DNA of 64,000 bases from the IMG/VR virus record IMGVR_UViG_3300033066_001054; one strand, given 5' to 3'. The translations under genes were made by a program, and so were the position numbers. Positions 2,251 through 8,828 of this stretch are shown here, piece after piece (within the stretch, counting starts at the first letter, position 1; each line of letters starts with the position of its first letter). A model generated the notes under the pieces. The model was given only the letters and a program-made list of their open reading frames with translations. It was not told where the DNA came from and did not search any database. The stretch comes from a virus. Taxonomy: Duplodnaviria > Caudoviricetes.

Positions 2251-4167
2251 ATGGCTACAACAAAACAAGAAGGAGGACTGGACGCACGCACCAAAGCGGT
2301 TCGCTTGGCAATGCTACAGGAATCCGACGCGGACGATTTTCGACAATGCGTTCGCGAAGTGCAAGCCAGTACAGGACTTTCCGAAGCGGAAGCTCGGATT
2401 GTTGCTGGAGCACTTAGAAGTGAAATGCTTCCCAAGGTCGCTCAATCTCTCGGACTAGAGGAGGATGACATTGCAGACTTTGCAAACAAACTCCCAGGTG
2501 ACGAAGATGATGCAGACGGGGAGCAACCGACCACAGATTTCGCTGACGACAAGGTTGAAGACGAAGATGACTTCGTTGAAGAACCACAAGATGATACAGC
2601 CGCCATTCGAGGGGATGCTCTCGATATGGGTGGTGAAGACGCCATCGAAGACGACATGAGCGATGTAGACGACTTGGGTACAGAACAGACCCTTGAGATT
2701 CAAGTGCCTGCGGGCAAAGTAGACGAGGTTCAAGAAGCGATTCGTTCGATTCTTGGAACCGATGCTTTTGGCCTTGGCGGAGATTCTGAATTCAATTTCA
2801 AAGACGACGAAGAAGGAGATTTTGGAGATGAAAATTTCGAAGATATGCCTTTGGAAGACGATGACGAAGATTTGAATTTCGAAGATGAAAACATTGGGGA
2901 AGACGCCCCGAACACAGGAAAACAGGTGATTAGCATGTCCAACAAGCAAAAGGCTGGCCGTGAAGTCAGGGCTGCTGATGAGCAGGTGAAACCAAAAGAC
3001 CGAGGTCTTGGAAGTGACACTAGCCACGGAGGCAAACCTTTCCAATATGCGGCAGATGCCCAATATCAGGGTGAAGACAAACGACCTGGCATGACCCTTG
3101 AGGACAGTGCAGGCAATTCACTCCGCGACCAAAACCCGACTTTCGCAGACGCGACAGTCCCCGCCAAAAACCCCGAGAAACTTCAGTTGAAGAACTCGTA
3201 CAAGACCTTCAAATACGAAGGTGCCGATGGTGACATCGAGTACGACATGAGCAGCGAAGTTTTCGAAGTCCCCTCTGCCGGTGAAAAGGCCGGAGGCGAA
3301 TTTGAAGTTCCAACTCAAATGACCAGTACTCTTGACCGCAAGACTACTGTGGCCACTTTGAATAGTAACGTCGAAAGAGTCGCTGGGGAAAAAGCAACCG
3401 ACGACAGTGATTATGTCACTGCAAACAACGAAGAGCTTTATGTTACTTCTGACAATCGCACCGTAGGTCGCGATGAGTTCGAAGAGCATGTCATTGACAC
3501 CTTGGTGGCAAGCGGCATGACAGAGAAGGAAGTACTTGCGATGTCATTCGCAGAAGGGCTCGAGCTATACGGCAATATTGTCGAACAGCGCACTGCTGCA
3601 AGCAATGCAATGGGCGACATTACCCGCGCACATGCTGAAAGGCAGGCTCGCATCAATAAACTGGCAGCCGACATTAAGGTCGAGATTGCTGGTGGAACTG
3701 AAGAGCCAGATGGCACAGACGAGACAATTGAGGAAGCCCTTAAGGAATCTCGAGAAGCCATGAGAGACACATTCATCCGCGAGGCTGAATTGTTCAAAAA
3801 GCGCGTTAAGGCCGCTTATGGCGTAACTACTCGACTCGTAATCGCTGGAATTATCAACGATAACGAAGTTGACAATCACGTAGACACTTGGCTCAAGGAT
3901 AACCTGAGCGTGGGTGCCATGCTTAAGCAAGGCAACTTCATGCTTCGGGCTGCGTCCAAGACGACCGACCGCACCGTACAAGCCGGCAACAACAGTGGCA
4001 ACACTCGAACTGCTGGAGTATCGGTAAACCCTGCCCTTGTAACACCGAATCTCGGTAGCACACAGGAGGTTAAGGACCGTCTCGCCAATCTTTTCACTGT
4101 TGGTGGAATCCCACGTAACGCATTTGATGCTTACAAAGATAACGACAACAACAGCAGGGACTTTTAA
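2251..4167 (+). CDS. Highly acidic putative capsid scaffold/core protein
   Basis: 638 aa, D/E-rich N-half and helical C-half, AGGGAG RBS, two genes upstream of the MCP. Function inferred from position. Confidence 0.5.
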   Translation: MATTKQEGGLDARTKAVRLAMLQESDADDFRQCVREVQASTGLSEAEARIVAGALRSEMLPKVAQSLGLEEDDIADFANKLPGDEDDADGEQPTTDFADDKVEDEDDFVEEPQDDTAAIRGDALDMGGEDAIEDDMSDVDDLGTEQTLEIQVPAGKVDEVQEAIRSILGTDAFGLGGDSEFNFKDDEEGDFGDENFEDMPLEDDDEDLNFEDENIGEDAPNTGKQVISMSNKQKAGREVRAADEQVKPKDRGLGSDTSHGGKPFQYAADAQYQGEDKRPGMTLEDSAGNSLRDQNPTFADATVPAKNPEKLQLKNSYKTFKYEGADGDIEYDMSSEVFEVPSAGEKAGGEFEVPTQMTSTLDRKTTVATLNSNVERVAGEKATDDSDYVTANNEELYVTSDNRTVGRDEFEEHVIDTLVASGMTEKEVLAMSFAEGLELYGNIVEQRTAASNAMGDITRAHAERQARINKLAADIKVEIAGGTEEPDGTDETIEEALKESREAMRDTFIREAELFKKRVKAAYGVTTRLVIAGIINDNEVDNHVDTWLKDNLSVGAMLKQGNFMLRAASKTTDRTVQAGNNSGNTRTAGVSVNPALVTPNLGSTQEVKDRLANLFTVGGIPRNAFDAYKDNDNNSRDF

Positions 4168-4188: not shown

Positions 4189-4935
4189 ATGGCAATTCGC
4201 GAGCTTCAAAGCGTAGTCCACCTTCAATACGAAAGCAAGGCCGATTCAAACGTCCAGAACCTCTGGCACGCAGGTCAGGTTCTCGCTATGGAATGGCAGG
4301 CAAGCGCTAACAATACAACACAAGGTTTGGTCCGCCTCGCAAACCGTGGTGACAGTTGGACGACAACTTCGTCTGGTGTCCTCGACAACCCCGGTACAGA
4401 GGTACGAGCAAACATCGTAGGTCTTTCTGCCGACGACACGGCGCGAACTGGCAACACCGGCATTTATGTCGACCCAGTCGGTTCCACCTATGTTGGCACA
4501 GGTGTAGGTTCTTCCGCATCGTTTACCGACAACACAAATGGTTTCTATTCAGCGACCAAGCGTGCTCTCGGTGACTATCAGGATGAGCGCATCACCAACG
4601 TCACAAACTTGACTGATTCGAACTCCGGTTACGCCGGTCCTCGACGCTCAGTCGCCGTTTATGCAACACCATCTGCGCAGTTCCTCGTGGACAGCACAGC
4701 ATTCGTGTCAGCACAGACAGCCACAACTAACGGTACGTATCTGGACCAATCTCTTGGTACAGCGTTCGCCCCTGGCGACATTCTTACTGTTGGTGCAGGT
4801 GTGTTTGCGAGCGCAAACAACTTCGGTTGCTTGGTTCGACGCACAGCGGCTGCCGATGGTACTGCTATCGCCCGATTGGACGAGTACAACAGCACCAGCG
4901 GCCTTATGAAAATTACACTCTTGATGAGTCTGTAA
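4189..4935 (+). CDS. Putative head decoration/cement protein
   Basis: 248 aa, T/S/G-rich beta-type sequence immediately before the MCP, CAGGAG RBS. Confidence 0.5.
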   Translation: MAIRELQSVVHLQYESKADSNVQNLWHAGQVLAMEWQASANNTTQGLVRLANRGDSWTTTSSGVLDNPGTEVRANIVGLSADDTARTGNTGIYVDPVGSTYVGTGVGSSASFTDNTNGFYSATKRALGDYQDERITNVTNLTDSNSGYAGPRRSVAVYATPSAQFLVDSTAFVSAQTATTNGTYLDQSLGTAFAPGDILTVGAGVFASANNFGCLVRRTAAADGTAIARLDEYNSTSGLMKITLLMSL

Positions 4936-4959
4936 GCAGGGGTATAGGAGATAACTAAC

Positions 4960-5820
4960 ATGAGCAACATCCGAAACGTATATGGCATTGACGAGCAAAA
5001 CGAAGAGTTTCTCGCCGCCGCTATGGACACCCCCGAAGGTCGCGTCGCATTAGCGCAAGCTATGGTTGAACCCATTAAGACATCTTTGATGTACCAAGGT
5101 GTAGGCCGCAAGCTGCTGATGGTTGACGAACTGCCGCAGGGTGCCCTTCCTCGCTACGAGCGAGACATCGCAGTTAAGTCTTACGTAATGAGTAAGCGTG
5201 GTTCAGTTCCAACGTCTATCGTTGAAGCTGAAGAGTTGATGGTTCCGGTTCTTGAAATCGCTTGTAACCCAACCGTCAAGCTCAACGAAATCCGTGCCCG
5301 ACGATTCTATATTGTCGACCGCGCACAGGTGAGGGCCAAGGACTCATTGCAGCGACAAGAGGACGCCGAAGTCTTCCGCGTTATCAACGCGGCTGTACCT
5401 TCAGCACACAACATCACGGTTACTGGTTCACTCCAGCCCGAGAACATCAACCTCGCTCTGTCTCTCATTGAAGAGCACGAGTTGATTGGTGCCAAAATTG
5501 TTGTGCATCCTCAGCGCTACAAAGACATCCGAACATGGGGCAAGGAGTTCTATGATGAAGCGACAACTCGCGACATCTTGATGACCGGACTTTTCGGTCA
5601 CTTGTACTCCGCTGACATTCACGTCAGCACCATCGTTCCAAAGAACGCTGTCTACGTATTGGCACCGGCCGCCTTCGTTGGCGCCATGCCAGTCCGCCAG
5701 GACATCACCGTTCTTCCGAGCGACGACCCTCGACGACTCCGCCTCGGCTGGGTCATCTTCGAGGAACTTGGCTTCGCCGTTATCAACGACTACGCCACCG
5801 CTCGAATCATCGTTAGCTAA
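4960..5820 (+). CDS. Major capsid protein (HK97-like fold)
   Basis: 286 aa, AGGAG RBS, codon use biased to C-ending codons, strong terminator after it. Motifs ..IVVHPQRYKDI.., ..GHLYSADIHVS..VPKN..YVL.. and ..GWVIFEELGFAVIN..A.. fit HK97-type capsid proteins of large phages. Confidence 0.85.
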   Translation: MSNIRNVYGIDEQNEEFLAAAMDTPEGRVALAQAMVEPIKTSLMYQGVGRKLLMVDELPQGALPRYERDIAVKSYVMSKRGSVPTSIVEAEELMVPVLEIACNPTVKLNEIRARRFYIVDRAQVRAKDSLQRQEDAEVFRVINAAVPSAHNITVTGSLQPENINLALSLIEEHELIGAKIVVHPQRYKDIRTWGKEFYDEATTRDILMTGLFGHLYSADIHVSTIVPKNAVYVLAPAAFVGAMPVRQDITVLPSDDPRRLRLGWVIFEELGFAVINDYATARIIVS

Positions 5821-5838
5821 CGCTACGGTGAACGACTT

Positions 5839-5872
5839 ACAGGCCCCGCCATAGGCGGGGCCTGTTTTGTTT
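5839..5872 (+). terminator. Rho-independent terminator of the MCP gene
   Basis: ACAGGCCCCGCC/GGCGGGGCCTGT stem followed by TTTGTTT. Confidence 0.85.
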
Positions 5873-5885
5873 GTATAAGGCTGAA

Positions 5886-6110
5886 GTGGTCGAAAAACAA
5901 CATAATACAGAGTTGAATAATGGATTCTATGACGCAGCGACACAGCGCGATATATTGAAGACAGGTTACTACGGTCATTTGTATTCAGCAAGTATACATG
6001 TTAGCACAATGGTTCCTAGAAACACTGTGGAAACTATGGATAGGGTGTTGCAATCAGAAGAACAGCGTAAGCAACTTTCTGATTACATGCGGTCGTGGTT
6101 GAAGAAATGA
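5886..6110 (+). CDS. MCP-fragment mini-protein 1 (MCP aa ~197-231) plus shared C-terminal tag
   Basis: FYDAATQRDILKTGYYGHLYSASIHVSTMVPRNTV vs MCP FYDEATTRDILMTGLFGHLYSADIHVSTIVPKNAV; ends QLSDYMRSWLKK. GTG 5886 start is inferred (track uses 5871). Confidence 0.8.
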   Translation: MVEKQHNTELNNGFYDAATQRDILKTGYYGHLYSASIHVSTMVPRNTVETMDRVLQSEEQRKQLSDYMRSWLKK

Positions 6111-6352
6111 GCAACGGCGAAATTATACTACCAGGTGCCTTCGATGGCGCATTGCCGATGAGAGAAGACATAACGATTTTGCCAGCCACACCTGTGCCAC
6201 GAGATAAACAGGGACTTGGCTGGGTGGTTTTTGAAGAAGTTGGTGAAGCAATAATCAACAACTATGCTATTGATAGAATAGTGGTCAGTAATCAAACTCA
6301 AGAAGATATCAAACGAGCGCTGGAAGAATACATGAGGAAATATGCAAGGTAG
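6107..6352 (+). CDS. MCP-fragment mini-protein 2 (MCP aa ~236-286) plus tag
   Basis: GAFDGALPMREDITILP..LGWVVFEEVGEAIINNYAIDRIVVS vs the MCP C-terminus; ends ALEEYMRKYAR; ATGA overlap with the previous stop. Confidence 0.8.
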   Translation: MSNGEIILPGAFDGALPMREDITILPATPVPRDKQGLGWVVFEEVGEAIINNYAIDRIVVSNQTQEDIKRALEEYMRKYAR

Positions 6353-6563
6353 CAGTGAATCAAAACCATATAAGGCGTTTGGGCGCAAGCTGTTAATGGT
6401 TGACGAATTACCTCAGGGTGCATTAGCAAAATACGAGCGTGACGTACAAGTGAAATCGTATGTCATACCACGTCGTGGTGGTGTGCCCGGAGCTGTTTCA
6501 GAACCTTATGCACCAATTGACACACTCAAGGAATATATTAGGAAGTGGATGAGTAGTGGCTAA
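6342..6563 (+). CDS. MCP-fragment mini-protein 3 (MCP aa 49-84) plus tag
   Basis: GRKLLMVDELPQGALAKYERDVQVKSYVIPRRGGVP, 28/36 identical to the MCP by hand alignment; ends TLKEYIRKWMSSG. Confidence 0.8.
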   Translation: MQGSSESKPYKAFGRKLLMVDELPQGALAKYERDVQVKSYVIPRRGGVPGAVSEPYAPIDTLKEYIRKWMSSG

Positions 6564-6789
6564 AAACACAAATCAACAAAGAGAGGACCAAATAACAGCG
6601 GCGCTTAGCACCCCAGAAGGCAAGGCAGCACTTCGTGCCGCGATGTCCGCGCCAATACAGACTTCGATAATGTATCAGAACATCGGCGCGAAACTGCTAA
6701 TGGTAGATTCATTGCCAGACCCTTATGACGAATATCCGAATGCCCGTGACGCTGTTAGCGATTACATGAAAAAATGGGTGCAAAAATGA
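6556..6789 (+). CDS. MCP-fragment mini-protein 4 (MCP aa ~15-59) plus tag
   Basis: AALSTPEGKAALRAAMSAPIQTSIMYQNIGAKLLMVDSLP vs MCP AAMDTPEGRVALAQAMVEPIKTSLMYQGVGRKLLMVDELP; ends AVSDYMKKWVQK. Confidence 0.8.
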   Translation: MAKNTNQQREDQITAALSTPEGKAALRAAMSAPIQTSIMYQNIGAKLLMVDSLPDPYDEYPNARDAVSDYMKKWVQK

Positions 6790-6980
6790 CCGCGAACCCA
6801 CTGGCTAACATCAATGCAGCTCTCGAGGCATTGGAACAACACGAATTGGCCGGCGCAAAAATCATCATTCATCCGAGCAGGTATGCCGATATTGAGCGAT
6901 GGAGAAGAGAAGATGACGCCACAATACGCGAGCAGTTTAGCAAGTACATGCGAGGATATTTGGGTCAAGACATCAAGTAA
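6786..6980 (+). CDS. MCP-fragment mini-protein 5 (MCP aa ~162-193) plus tag
   Basis: NINAALEALEQHELAGAKIIIHPSRYADIERW vs MCP NINLALSLIEEHELIGAKIVVHPQRYKDIRTW; ends QFSKYMRGYLGQDIK; ATGA overlap. Confidence 0.8.
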   Translation: MTANPLANINAALEALEQHELAGAKIIIHPSRYADIERWRREDDATIREQFSKYMRGYLGQDIK

Positions 6981-7522
6981 TATTCAGAGACATCTTGACC
7001 CATGGCTGCTTCACATTTGTCAACAATTTTGACAATGTAGTCTGATATTCCTTTATGTTGCAATGAACTGAGTTTCGACATTTCACTGAGTGTGTATGTC
7101 ATTTCTTTGAATGATTCCATACGTCGCTCATCTTGTGCCAACATTTGTTGACCAATCAAAACACCGAACATCTGCGGGTCTTGGACCCCAAAATCCTTGC
7201 TGTGGTATTTGATTGTGTGAATAGACCTGATTGCGTGTTCTGCATGCTCGAATTCTGTTAAACAACGAATTAAAGAGGTGTACAGTGCTGCCAATTCTCC
7301 AGTCATCTGCACTTCGCCAGACACCAACACTGGCAATAGACTGTATTGGATTGTTCGAATACAGGCACTCATTTCAGCGTTGGGCTCGAATGCCATGTTC
7401 GATGGCATTTCGTCCGGGGACTCATTGAGTTGTTGCTGAATGGTCGACGTGTTATTGTCGATTCTCTCTTGCTCAATTCCCTGGATGTCGTCTGGAATAC
7501 TTGCCTTTCTAAATCGTTTCAT
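6965..7522 (-). CDS. Hypothetical protein
   Basis: 185-aa ORF coupled to the upstream Dps-like gene and convergent on the mini-gene array. Confidence 0.6.
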   Translation of the reverse strand: MKRFRKASIPDDIQGIEQERIDNNTSTIQQQLNESPDEMPSNMAFEPNAEMSACIRTIQYSLLPVLVSGEVQMTGELAALYTSLIRCLTEFEHAEHAIRSIHTIKYHSKDFGVQDPQMFGVLIGQQMLAQDERRMESFKEMTYTLSEMSKLSSLQHKGISDYIVKIVDKCEAAMGQDVSEYYLMS

Positions 7523-7875
7523 TGTAGCGTCAATAGATACTTGAGTTTGTTCATTGCAGCAAGCATCTCATCCCTGAGATTAAGTAAGTCCGAATCTGAT
7601 TGTTCAAACACATTGTTAAACTCTATCAGATATTCAATGCAGTGACCGATGAACTCAATAGGTTCAACATTTACAGAAAGCGATATGCTCAATTTATCTT
7701 CGCGGATTCTGCTTTGGGATTTGCCCAAGTACACTTCGACAAATTCATCAACAAGTCCATCAAGTGCTTCGTAGGTTTTTCCAAACGCCTCGTGTTGCGC
7801 GAAACTTTTGGTCTGCCAGTGGAACACACGAATTTGTTGTTGAATCGTGATGAGGTTTCCAATTAGCTGACTCAT
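7519..7875 (-). CDS. Small Dps/ferritin-like four-helix protein (DUF5856-like)
   Basis: FHWQTKSFAQHEAFGKTYEALDGLVDEFVE matches the Dps HW..H..D..E pattern; C-terminal KLKYLLTL. Confidence 0.75.
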   Translation of the reverse strand: MSQLIGNLITIQQQIRVFHWQTKSFAQHEAFGKTYEALDGLVDEFVEVYLGKSQSRIREDKLSISLSVNVEPIEFIGHCIEYLIEFNNVFEQSDSDLLNLRDEMLAAMNKLKYLLTLQ

Positions 7876-7910: not shown

Positions 7911-8828
7911 TCAGACCATCGCAAGTTCTTTTGAATTCGGCAACGGCGTGTTCAAGGCTGATACGATTTCATCAGCGAAATTCTCTTTCGGTCTACACCA
8001 AGATGTGTGCTCGTAGTTGACCTTATTTGCGCTTGATTCGTATTTCTTTGGATTGTGCCTGAGCAAAAGTTTCTGTGCTAATAGTGTATCTGCTATTGGG
8101 ATATTGGTTCCCATGTGTCCGCAAAATGCTTGTTCAACCTTATTCTTATCACCGAGGCGCAAAACGTTGCCATGAAGTGTATACAAAAGCCGGTATTTGA
8201 TGCCGCATTTTGATACAACATCAAACCATCCTTGCTTCTTCAGTGAACGCTTTTGCACTGGCGACAAGTGTTCCCAAAGCAAATGAATTGCTCGGTGAGT
8301 AGCCTTGGCCCGGAGCATTGCATTTCGCTCAATCTCTGCTTCACGTGCCCGACGTTGCTCTTCGAGTAATTCTCTCTCTTCCTCAGTGAGTTCTCGAGAT
8401 GTAATCCCACCCAGCATTGCGCCGAAATAGTTCGATGTATCACTTGATGCAATGTACTGAAGCACCTGGCCCGAAGCAGTACACCCCTCAGCGGTACTGA
8501 GTATCAGATTTTGCAGTTCGGTATTTGAACTGCCTGGCGTCATTGCCAGCCTCACTGACCAATATGGATAAGACCCTTCAGTGGCGGTGGCGGTTATGTT
8601 TTGAACTACATAATTGCAATTTGAACCAGTGATAACTCTTGTGTTAGCCAAAAGTTCAATTGCCGCAGTGTCGTCTACTTCAAATTCATATACAGCACTT
8701 AGGGTTGTATCGGTTCGATACGCGGTAATTGCCGTGTTGCTCATAGTCGAAAGATGCACGCTATGGCTGGTTCCAGAAGTAGCGCAACCTGACCAATACA
8801 ACCCAAGAGAGTTGTTTGTCGAGGGCAT
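7911..8828 (-). CDS. Hypothetical protein
   Basis: 305-aa ORF coupled to the upstream gene. Confidence 0.55.
   Translation of the reverse strand: MPSTNNSLGLYWSGCATSGTSHSVHLSTMSNTAITAYRTDTTLSAVYEFEVDDTAAIELLANTRVITGSNCNYVVQNITATATEGSYPYWSVRLAMTPGSSNTELQNLILSTAEGCTASGQVLQYIASSDTSNYFGAMLGGITSRELTEEERELLEEQRRAREAEIERNAMLRAKATHRAIHLLWEHLSPVQKRSLKKQGWFDVVSKCGIKYRLLYTLHGNVLRLGDKNKVEQAFCGHMGTNIPIADTLLAQKLLLRHNPKKYESSANKVNYEHTSWCRPKENFADEIVSALNTPLPNSKELAMV

Follow-up and report, generated by a model that had tools for sequence, protein, structure and literature searches.

The vertex protein gp24 of bacteriophage T4 is a paralogue of gp23, a duplicate of the phage's own HK97-fold capsid gene that is encoded near its parent, and the Gol peptide of T4 gp23 is read by the Lit protease. 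The internal proteins of T4 (e.g., IPI*) carry an N-terminal capsid-targeting sequence, which is cleaved by the prohead protease. Silent cassette arrays, such as pilS of Neisseria and vls of Borrelia, place incomplete copies of a surface or structural gene beside the expressed gene and serve gene conversion, and MinD and FtsA possess C-terminal amphipathic helices that target them to the membrane. To our knowledge, mutation of the capsid itself is the only known way in which a phage escapes capsid sensing. The major capsid protein (MCP) is sensed by CapRel-SJ46 (PMC9712102), and MCPs are frequent triggers of bacterial immunity (PMC9712102; review PMC13728456). Anti-defence proteins of phages that act as mimics or sponges have also been described, including the DNA mimic Ocr and the signal sponges Tad/Acb (review PMC13728456). 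Here, we describe an array of five small genes found in a 64,000-nucleotide (nt) stretch of viral DNA (IMG/VR record IMGVR_UViG_3300033066_001054; the whole stretch is called the window below). The source is a phage-G-like megaphage, and the array sits directly 3' of its MCP gene. Each of the five genes encodes a different piece of the MCP followed by a common C-terminal tail; they are very likely translated and under purifying selection, and we tentatively read them as an accessory set of MCP-epitope mimics or decoys directed against capsid-sensing host immunity.

The array consists of five open reading frames (ORFs) of 68-81 amino acids (aa) on the + strand, at window positions 5871-6980, and every start overlaps the preceding stop. 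The parent gene, the five members and the gene that bounds the array on the right are:

4960..5820, + strand: MCP gene, 286 aa, HK97 fold, parent of the fragments
5886-6110, + strand: f1, 74 aa from GTG 5886 (alternative start TTG 5871); A-domain strands and tail
6107-6352, + strand: f2, 81 aa from ATG 6107, which forms an ATGA overlap with the f1 stop (alternative start GTG 6095); C-terminal MCP piece and tail
6342-6563, + strand: f3, 73 aa; E-loop and tail
6556-6789, + strand: f4, 77 aa, GTG start; N-arm helices, first E-loop strand and tail
6774-6980, + strand: f5, 68 aa (alternative start ATG 6786); A-domain helix-strand-helix and tail
6965..7522, - strand: convergent 185-aa gene, right boundary of the array, with 88-99% identity in all related loci; its 3' end is overlapped by the end of f5 by 16 nt

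In BLASTP comparisons with the adjacent MCP, f1 matches aa 197-231 (74% identity, E=2e-16), f2 aa 233-286 (54%, E=3e-18), f3 aa 45-89 (67%, E=2e-19), f4 aa 11-59 (57%, E=1e-17), and f5 aa 162-~197 (50%, E=4e-16). Three of them (f2, f4, and f5) also match phrog_2522 directly; none of the five was assigned a Pfam family, and the 64-kb window holds no MCP-like piece beyond them. The initial annotation had described five overlapping ORFs carrying scrambled MCP pieces, with which both the coordinates and the BLASTP segments agree. The layout and the missing middle that it had given stand as well, while the pieces proved slightly wider than it had put them: they tile MCP residues 11-89 and 162-286, with f3 and f4 overlapping at 45-59, and omit residues 90-161.

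The parent itself is a well-supported capsid protein. It matches phrog_2522 (E=3e-68), is 49% identical to gp27 of Bacillus phage G, and its family profile matches the solved phage G capsid chain (PDB 6WKK, chain A) with E=2e-129. A model obtained with a shallow alignment was unusable, with a predicted local distance difference test (pLDDT) value of 50; a deep alignment of 61 sequences was used instead and gave an AlphaFold2 model with pLDDT 92, for which Foldseek returned HK97 gp5 and encapsulins. On the secondary structure of this model, f2 comprises a helix (237-240), the long P-domain hairpin (241-271), and the C-terminal strand, followed by the tail, and f5 and f1 are two consecutive parts of the A-domain. 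The omitted residues 90-161 correspond to the P-domain strands and the spine helix (118-145), that is, to the core against which the other elements pack. No ORF holds a complete HK97 fold in one polypeptide, each having only 35-55 MCP residues, and since the P-domain core and the spine helix are missing, no product can be a capsid subunit. In this respect, the array differs from T4 gp24, with which it shares its origin as a duplicate of an HK97-fold capsid gene encoded near the parent: gp24 is a complete fold that builds the vertices, whereas the array is made of short pieces with a foreign tail, lacks the core, and is dispensable. The ESM Atlas model of f2 alone has a mean pLDDT of 0.43, and f2 probably needs a partner for folding; a search of the ESM Atlas with f2 gave no meaningful relatives. 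A complex prediction for the MCP (alignment A5) with f3 (alignment A6) returned a score of 0.00, with the fold of the partner uncertain, and counts neither way.

All five products end in a common motif, Phi-x-[DEK]-Y-[MI]-x-x-[WYH]-Phi, with the instances LSDYMRSWLKK, LEEYMRKYAR, LKEYIRKWMSSG, VSDYMKKWVQK, and FSKYMRGYLGQDIK. The tails are encoded at:

6030..6107, + strand: f1 tail (...QLSDYMRSWLKK)
6290-6349, + strand: f2 tail
6498-6560, + strand: f3 tail
6718-6786, + strand: f4 tail
6903-6977, + strand: f5 tail

The tyrosine is invariant in the tail alignment (A3), and among 11,596 ORFs from the window and about 90 fetched loci, a hidden Markov model of the tail matches only ORFs of the array; a weak hit to KRALGDY in the decoration protein (E~10) is regarded as chance. 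The helical hydrophobic moment of the tails is 0.47-0.81, which places them at the 95th-100th percentile of the 14-mers of the window, and their net charge is +1 to +4. The tails are thus terminal, amphipathic, and net-cationic helices of the kind known from MinD and FtsA, with which they share the C-terminal position, short length, strong amphipathicity, and aromatic residues; they differ in having no sequence homology to them, and the array helix could equally dock on a protein. We infer that the tail may be a common handle, whose amphipathic and cationic character would fit docking to a membrane or a groove. The possibility that it is a degenerate spine helix gained no support from hhalign, which detected no profile similarity between the tail and any stretch of the MCP. 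The YMRK codons also serve, at two of the junctions, as the Shine-Dalgarno sequence of the next gene. The tail is kept at the protein level, as its Arg/Lys codons vary (CGG, AGG, AGG, AAA, CGA) and f5 carries the motif although no gene comes after it. Only a motif-coding core of 16-30 nt is common among the DNA repeats between the junctions; therefore, the tail is not a recent mobile cassette. Scans with a DNA pattern of the f5 tail codons gave no match in metagenome_contigs and viral_contigs, and the 17 matches to the f4 pattern in viral_contigs were all unrelated. In the whole genome of a sister phage (G001), no sequence scored with the tail profile, not even the known f5 remnant described below, so this search is insensitive. 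The T4 internal proteins resemble the array in being small accessory proteins with a short shared amphipathic peptide and in their co-expression with head genes, which for the array is probable; however, their targeting sequence is N-terminal and the shared element of the array is C-terminal.

The evidence for translation comes from the substitution pattern. The ratios of nonsynonymous to synonymous divergence (dN/dS), calculated pairwise for each gene (NG86), range from 0.06 to 0.40. For the concatenated array, 20 of the 21 pairs lie at 0.12-0.34 and the closest pair at 0.47, with bootstrap confidence intervals below 1 (upper bound <=0.85). The MCP-like parts and the tails are both constrained. 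In the same loci, dN/dS is mostly 0.6-6 for shadow ORFs and 0.01-0.26 for accepted neighbour genes. The low values of the array when compared with the shadow ORFs make it very likely that the five genes are translated and under purifying selection; a dN/dS near 1, which would have spoken against the selection on protein proposed in the initial annotation, was not found. The residues under constraint are also those of the parent family: array orthologues agree with the family consensus more often at MCP alignment columns of lower entropy (Spearman rho -0.36, p=8e-8), and the array retains the MCP-family residues G27, P38, L58, Y66, G81, G210, G241, G263, E268, and G271. As residues conserved across the MCP family are kept, it is suggested that the pieces adopt MCP-like conformations. 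R50, the most conserved residue of the MCP, is replaced in several copies of f3 and f4, an exception that may be informative.

The fragments are old. Their nucleotide identity to the phage's own MCP gene is 53-70%, with synonymous divergence (dS) saturated; among 134 positions encoding the same residue, 81 use a different codon, and the longest identical run is 12 nt. The divergence at synonymous sites noted earlier was thereby borne out, and these features indicate an old duplication of the own MCP gene, without recent gene conversion. In a maximum-likelihood tree of concatenated arrays and MCPs (198 shared columns), the arrays form one clade (100/99) on a long stem (0.34). Within the 69-78% clade, this array clade groups weakly (82/78) with the own MCP lineage as its sister. 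Four fragments are more similar to the MCPs of the 77-78% sister clade than to their own MCP: f3 (82 vs 67% identity), f4 (63 vs 57%), f1 (77 vs 74%), and f2 (59 vs 54%). This higher identity results from changes on the branch of the own MCP (0.15), not from capture, and the origin of the array from the MCP of a competitor was rejected because of the position of the arrays in the tree. The pilS and vls cassettes are like the array in being partial copies of an expressed gene placed beside it. However, the array genes have their own starts and stops, translational coupling, and selection at the protein level, they share no more than 12 identical nt with the parent, and the MCP does not vary.

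A search with the f3 protein gave full-length orthologues with 63-90% identity, on contigs (L047-L053 and L063-L068) from assemblies made independently (Logan, JGI, and ENA). Gene content and gene order are unchanged in at least seven independent assemblies, where all five genes lie between the MCP terminator and the 185-aa gene: L047, L048, L049, L050, L063, L065, and L066, the last three with one frameshifted member; L051-L053 and L064 start inside the array and contain its 3' part. The initial annotation had named a misassembly, or orthologues that are frameshifted or absent, as grounds for doubt, and had suggested a search for similar arrays in relatives. The recurrence of the array in independent assemblies excludes misassembly, and orthologues exist, most of them with intact frames. 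Orthologues of f1 are present in L047, L048, L049, L050, L065, and L066, and the L063 copy of f1 carries a frameshift. In f2, a frameshift lies at an A-run (..ADDPKN / KKPRLGW..) in L065-L068 (L065:1000-1262), which are four independent assemblies. At this site, f2 of the window and of L047 has the loop ATPVPRDKQG instead of ADDPKKLRL, and the loop seems to be an indel hot spot. Changes between relatives are mostly substitutions and in-frame indels, for example, the loss of 11 aa from f2 of L047 and of DPYD from f4. A further relative is L004, a locus of the complete sister genome G001 (478,840 bp, with direct terminal repeats). Its identity to the window is 92% across 5.9 kb on the upstream side of the array, and its MCP is essentially identical, but it is devoid of the segment corresponding to window positions 5881-6876; only a 41-aa remnant of f5 is left. 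The same genome contains a second HK97-like ORF (L059; G001:C1:304593-305012) of 356 aa, with 26% identity to MCP residues 108-245, which lies far from the head module. For the 77-78% clade, the fetched MCP-flanking loci were searched, and two genomes were searched whole. MCP pieces were not found in these flanking loci, in phage G, or in two other large phages, and a DNA search of the phage collection with window positions 4900-7100 gave no match. The array, deleted in the sister genome and absent from phage G and the searched loci of the clade, is accessory and dispensable.

Among close relatives, the fragments and their parent behave differently. The MCPs of the window, L047, and L048 are 99-100% identical (dN 0.002-0.005), whereas dN of the fragments among the same three is 0.02-0.14, and 0.22 for f1, which is partly replaced in L047; the protein change of the fragments is thus ~10-50x that of the MCP. 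The array is also mosaic: between the window and L048, dS is 0.07 for f1 and 0.39-0.84 for f2-f5, and f5 of the window is closest to that of L047. An accessory, patchy locus with rapid turnover among close relatives is what is seen with anti-defence decoys and sponges. Ocr and Tad/Acb share with the array that they are small, accessory, fast-evolving genes of patchy distribution, for which competition or mimicry is proposed; in contrast to them, the array would mimic the phage's own structural protein, in five pieces on a common tail.

The signals for expression lie in the short space between the MCP gene and f1:

5839..5875, + strand (also given as 5839-5865): intrinsic terminator after the MCP gene, with a 12-bp G+C-rich stem, a 3-nt loop, and a T-rich run
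5877..5880, + strand: Shine-Dalgarno-like AAGG inside TGTATAAG, 5 nt before GTG 5886

The minimum free energy of the terminator is -30.3 kcal/mol (z=-5.0), and its stem is maintained by paired changes in L047, L048, L063, L065, and L004. The gap from the terminator to the array is 20 nt. The AAGG before f1 is conserved in all loci that bear the array. The initial annotation had attributed a separate transcript to the TGTATAAG element, a proposal that gained no statistical support: TGTATAAG occurs twice in the window, against 1.6 occurrences expected, which is not an enrichment, and the array begins right behind the conserved terminator. A scan for sigma-70-type promoters revealed no convincing promoter before f1, where the space behind the terminator is too short for a standard one, and an Rfam scan of the region gave nothing significant. 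Because of the short distance from a conserved strong terminator, read-through, which would yield less product than is made of the MCP, is at least as likely as a separate transcript and would be the simplest reading; a leaderless transcript of the array is also conceivable.

Taken at face value, the locus would be an operon of five translationally coupled "capsid-mimic" mini-proteins that go back to an old duplication of the phage's own MCP gene, with each mini-protein presenting one peripheral HK97 element on a common C-terminal amphipathic, cationic helix. The mini-proteins would most likely be made together with the MCP by terminator read-through, thus at a lower level, and would compete with the real MCP for a partner that reads these elements. 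As native-like features of the MCP are kept and f2 modelled alone has a low pLDDT, the pieces most likely occupy the site that reads the MCP element. The accessory, mosaic, fast-changing, and member-losing pattern appears to fit a conflict better than an essential role in assembly, and since the locus behaves like a conflict locus, the likeliest partner would be capsid-sensing host immunity of the CapRel, Lit/Gol, Thoeris, or CBASS kind, against which the pieces might act as non-activating baits or sponges, with the shared tail serving as the handle, e.g., for docking to a membrane or a partner. The known capsid sensors agree with the premise of such decoys, as both Lit (through Gol) and CapRel-SJ46 read capsid surfaces or peptides; however, the trigger in these cases is a part of the real MCP, not a free piece that counters the sensor. 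Several further points weigh against the decoy reading. Full-text literature searches turned up neither decoys nor arrays made of capsid pieces, nor fragments of MCP paralogues, in phages. Some other genes of these mosaic genomes reach similar dS, so the divergence of the array is not unique, and positive selection was not seen at the available power, the dN/dS of the array being well below 1. A mimic of a trigger might activate the sensor instead of blocking it, and the position behind a strong terminator argues for an abundance below that of the MCP. The decoy reading is possible, and we hold it tentatively. An extension of it, which we consider doubtful, is a modular "bait-plus-handle" form of counter-immunity, where a co-translated library of own-capsid epitopes on a constant helical handle would blind or titrate host sensors, and sister systems would use other address tags, e.g., twin-arginine signals. 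If true, it would be a general and so far unrecognised use of fragments of their own structural proteins as decoys by large phages. Whatever the target (host sensors, own assembly, or rivals), a conserved operon under selection, from which five capsid elements are expressed once more, each on the common tail, would represent a new class of phage genes; the layout has no precedent in the literature searched. The defined MCP segments of 35-55 residues would have been picked by evolution as functional units, which makes them candidates for inhibitors of capsid sensing or of HK97-type assembly.

The decoy reading has to be weighed against functions directed at capsid assembly. The mini-proteins could be modulators of the assembly of the phage's own capsid: the pieces would dock on MCP subunits in place of the corresponding element of the adjacent subunit, as a sub-stoichiometric cap or chaperone, which could prevent premature or aberrant polymerisation of the T~52 shell, and the partner of the tail would be the scaffold or the inside of the shell. 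Such a role fits the location of the array, on the same strand, directly 3' of the MCP gene and its terminator, and the nature of the pieces, which are inter-subunit contact elements whose docking platform is the omitted core; the retained MCP-invariant residues and dN/dS values like those of the putative scaffold protein (0.14-0.26) also agree with it. However, close relatives differ by 4-31% in the pieces but have an invariant MCP, members are lost singly, the array was deleted in a complete sister genome with the same MCP and is absent from phage G and from the searched loci and genomes of the 77-78% clade, and R50 is not kept. Because the MCP stays the same while the pieces change, recombine, and get lost, a role in conflict is likelier than an essential partnership with the own MCP, and modulation of assembly is considered unlikely. 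The same elements could also be turned against rivals: they would poison, in a dominant-negative manner, the capsid assembly of relatives with similar MCPs that co-infect or superinfect the cell. The accessory and mosaic character of the locus would be expected of such a weapon, and MCPs of the abundant 77-78% sister clade resemble f3, f4, f1, and f2 at least as closely as the phage's own MCP does. Yet the weak sister relationship of the arrays to the own MCP lineage and the length of the own-MCP branch explain this identity, the own MCP would be expected to be poisoned too, and the MCPs of rivals are very uniform and would not drive fast change of the fragments, so that a role as a weapon seems quite improbable.

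Two further explanations concern what the array is as a whole. The five co-translated pieces might be a split pseudo-capsid protein that reassembles via the common helices into an MCP-like particle or a capsomer-like complex, which would have a special structural role. The f5, f1, and f2 pieces do tile residues 162-286 without overlap, making up the whole A-domain and the P-hairpin, the overlapping stops and starts suggest equimolar synthesis, and a shared amphipathic helix could serve as an association module. This is nevertheless very improbable given that the P-domain core and the spine helix are missing, that the tail has no similarity to that helix, and that single members are broken in otherwise intact arrays. 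Alternatively, the scrambled order of the pieces, together with occasional frameshifts and one deletion in relatives, might be taken as a sign of debris of a duplicated and rearranged MCP gene, or of silent donor cassettes for its conversion. The selection on the genes (dN/dS of 0.12-0.34 in most pairs, with confidence intervals below 1), their coupling, and the lack of identity tracts with the MCP gene (runs of at most 12 nt, beside an MCP that itself does not vary) show that the array is neither junk nor a silent cassette set; in most lineages, the frames are unbroken and indels preserve them, and the tail is conserved as protein with varied Arg/Lys codons. This explanation is largely refuted. 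The rest of the probability falls to a function outside these readings.

Pieces of MCP-family proteins were also observed as modules elsewhere in this phage group, which we count in favour of the decoy reading. In L040 (8979-12356), where the MCP is 63% identical, the region 2-6 kb downstream of the MCP gene encodes four small proteins, all different, that contain pieces of the N-arm, the E-loop, or the C-terminus, and one of them, of 64 aa, ends in ...EDKIKKINEYR, resembling the f2 tail. L069 encodes two MCP-piece proteins (3585-3827 and 7001-7366) far from any MCP gene. On contigs of large phages, a twin-arginine signal (SRRxFLK and a hydrophobic stretch) is fused to the MCP N-arm/E-loop (aa ~12-85), as in P0217, P0221, P0236, P0240, and P0021 and the loci L090:6001-6381, L091:6001-6459, and L071:435-716; in the three loci that were fetched, these fusions are distant from any structural module and sit mostly among genes of nucleotide metabolism. 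The representative library contains single polypeptides of shuffled or duplicated MCP pieces (P0124, P0173, P0039, P0040, P0041, and P0095), some with unrelated N-terminal domains or basic tails; the order of pieces in P0124 is 12-80, 12-35, 240-285, 160-192, and 90-122. The presence of MCP-family pieces with other appended modules in other large phages suggests a wider, unnoticed re-use of fragments of structural proteins.

The surroundings of the array belong partly to the head module. Upstream of the MCP gene, a 638-aa protein with a very acidic N-terminal half (2251-4167, + strand) is suggested by its position and composition to be the putative scaffold, and a 248-aa protein (4189-4935, + strand) stands where phage G has its decoration protein gp26; neither of the two has a match in Pfam or PHROGs. 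Beyond the convergent 185-aa gene lies a gene (7519-7875, - strand) of DUF5856/phrog_858 ("starvation-inducible regulator", Dps-like), which is kept beside the array in all related loci. The nearby 305-aa gene (7911-8828, - strand), with 99% identity to its counterpart in L048, 62% to that in L047, and 73% to that in L051, is another sharply mosaic, fast-changing gene.

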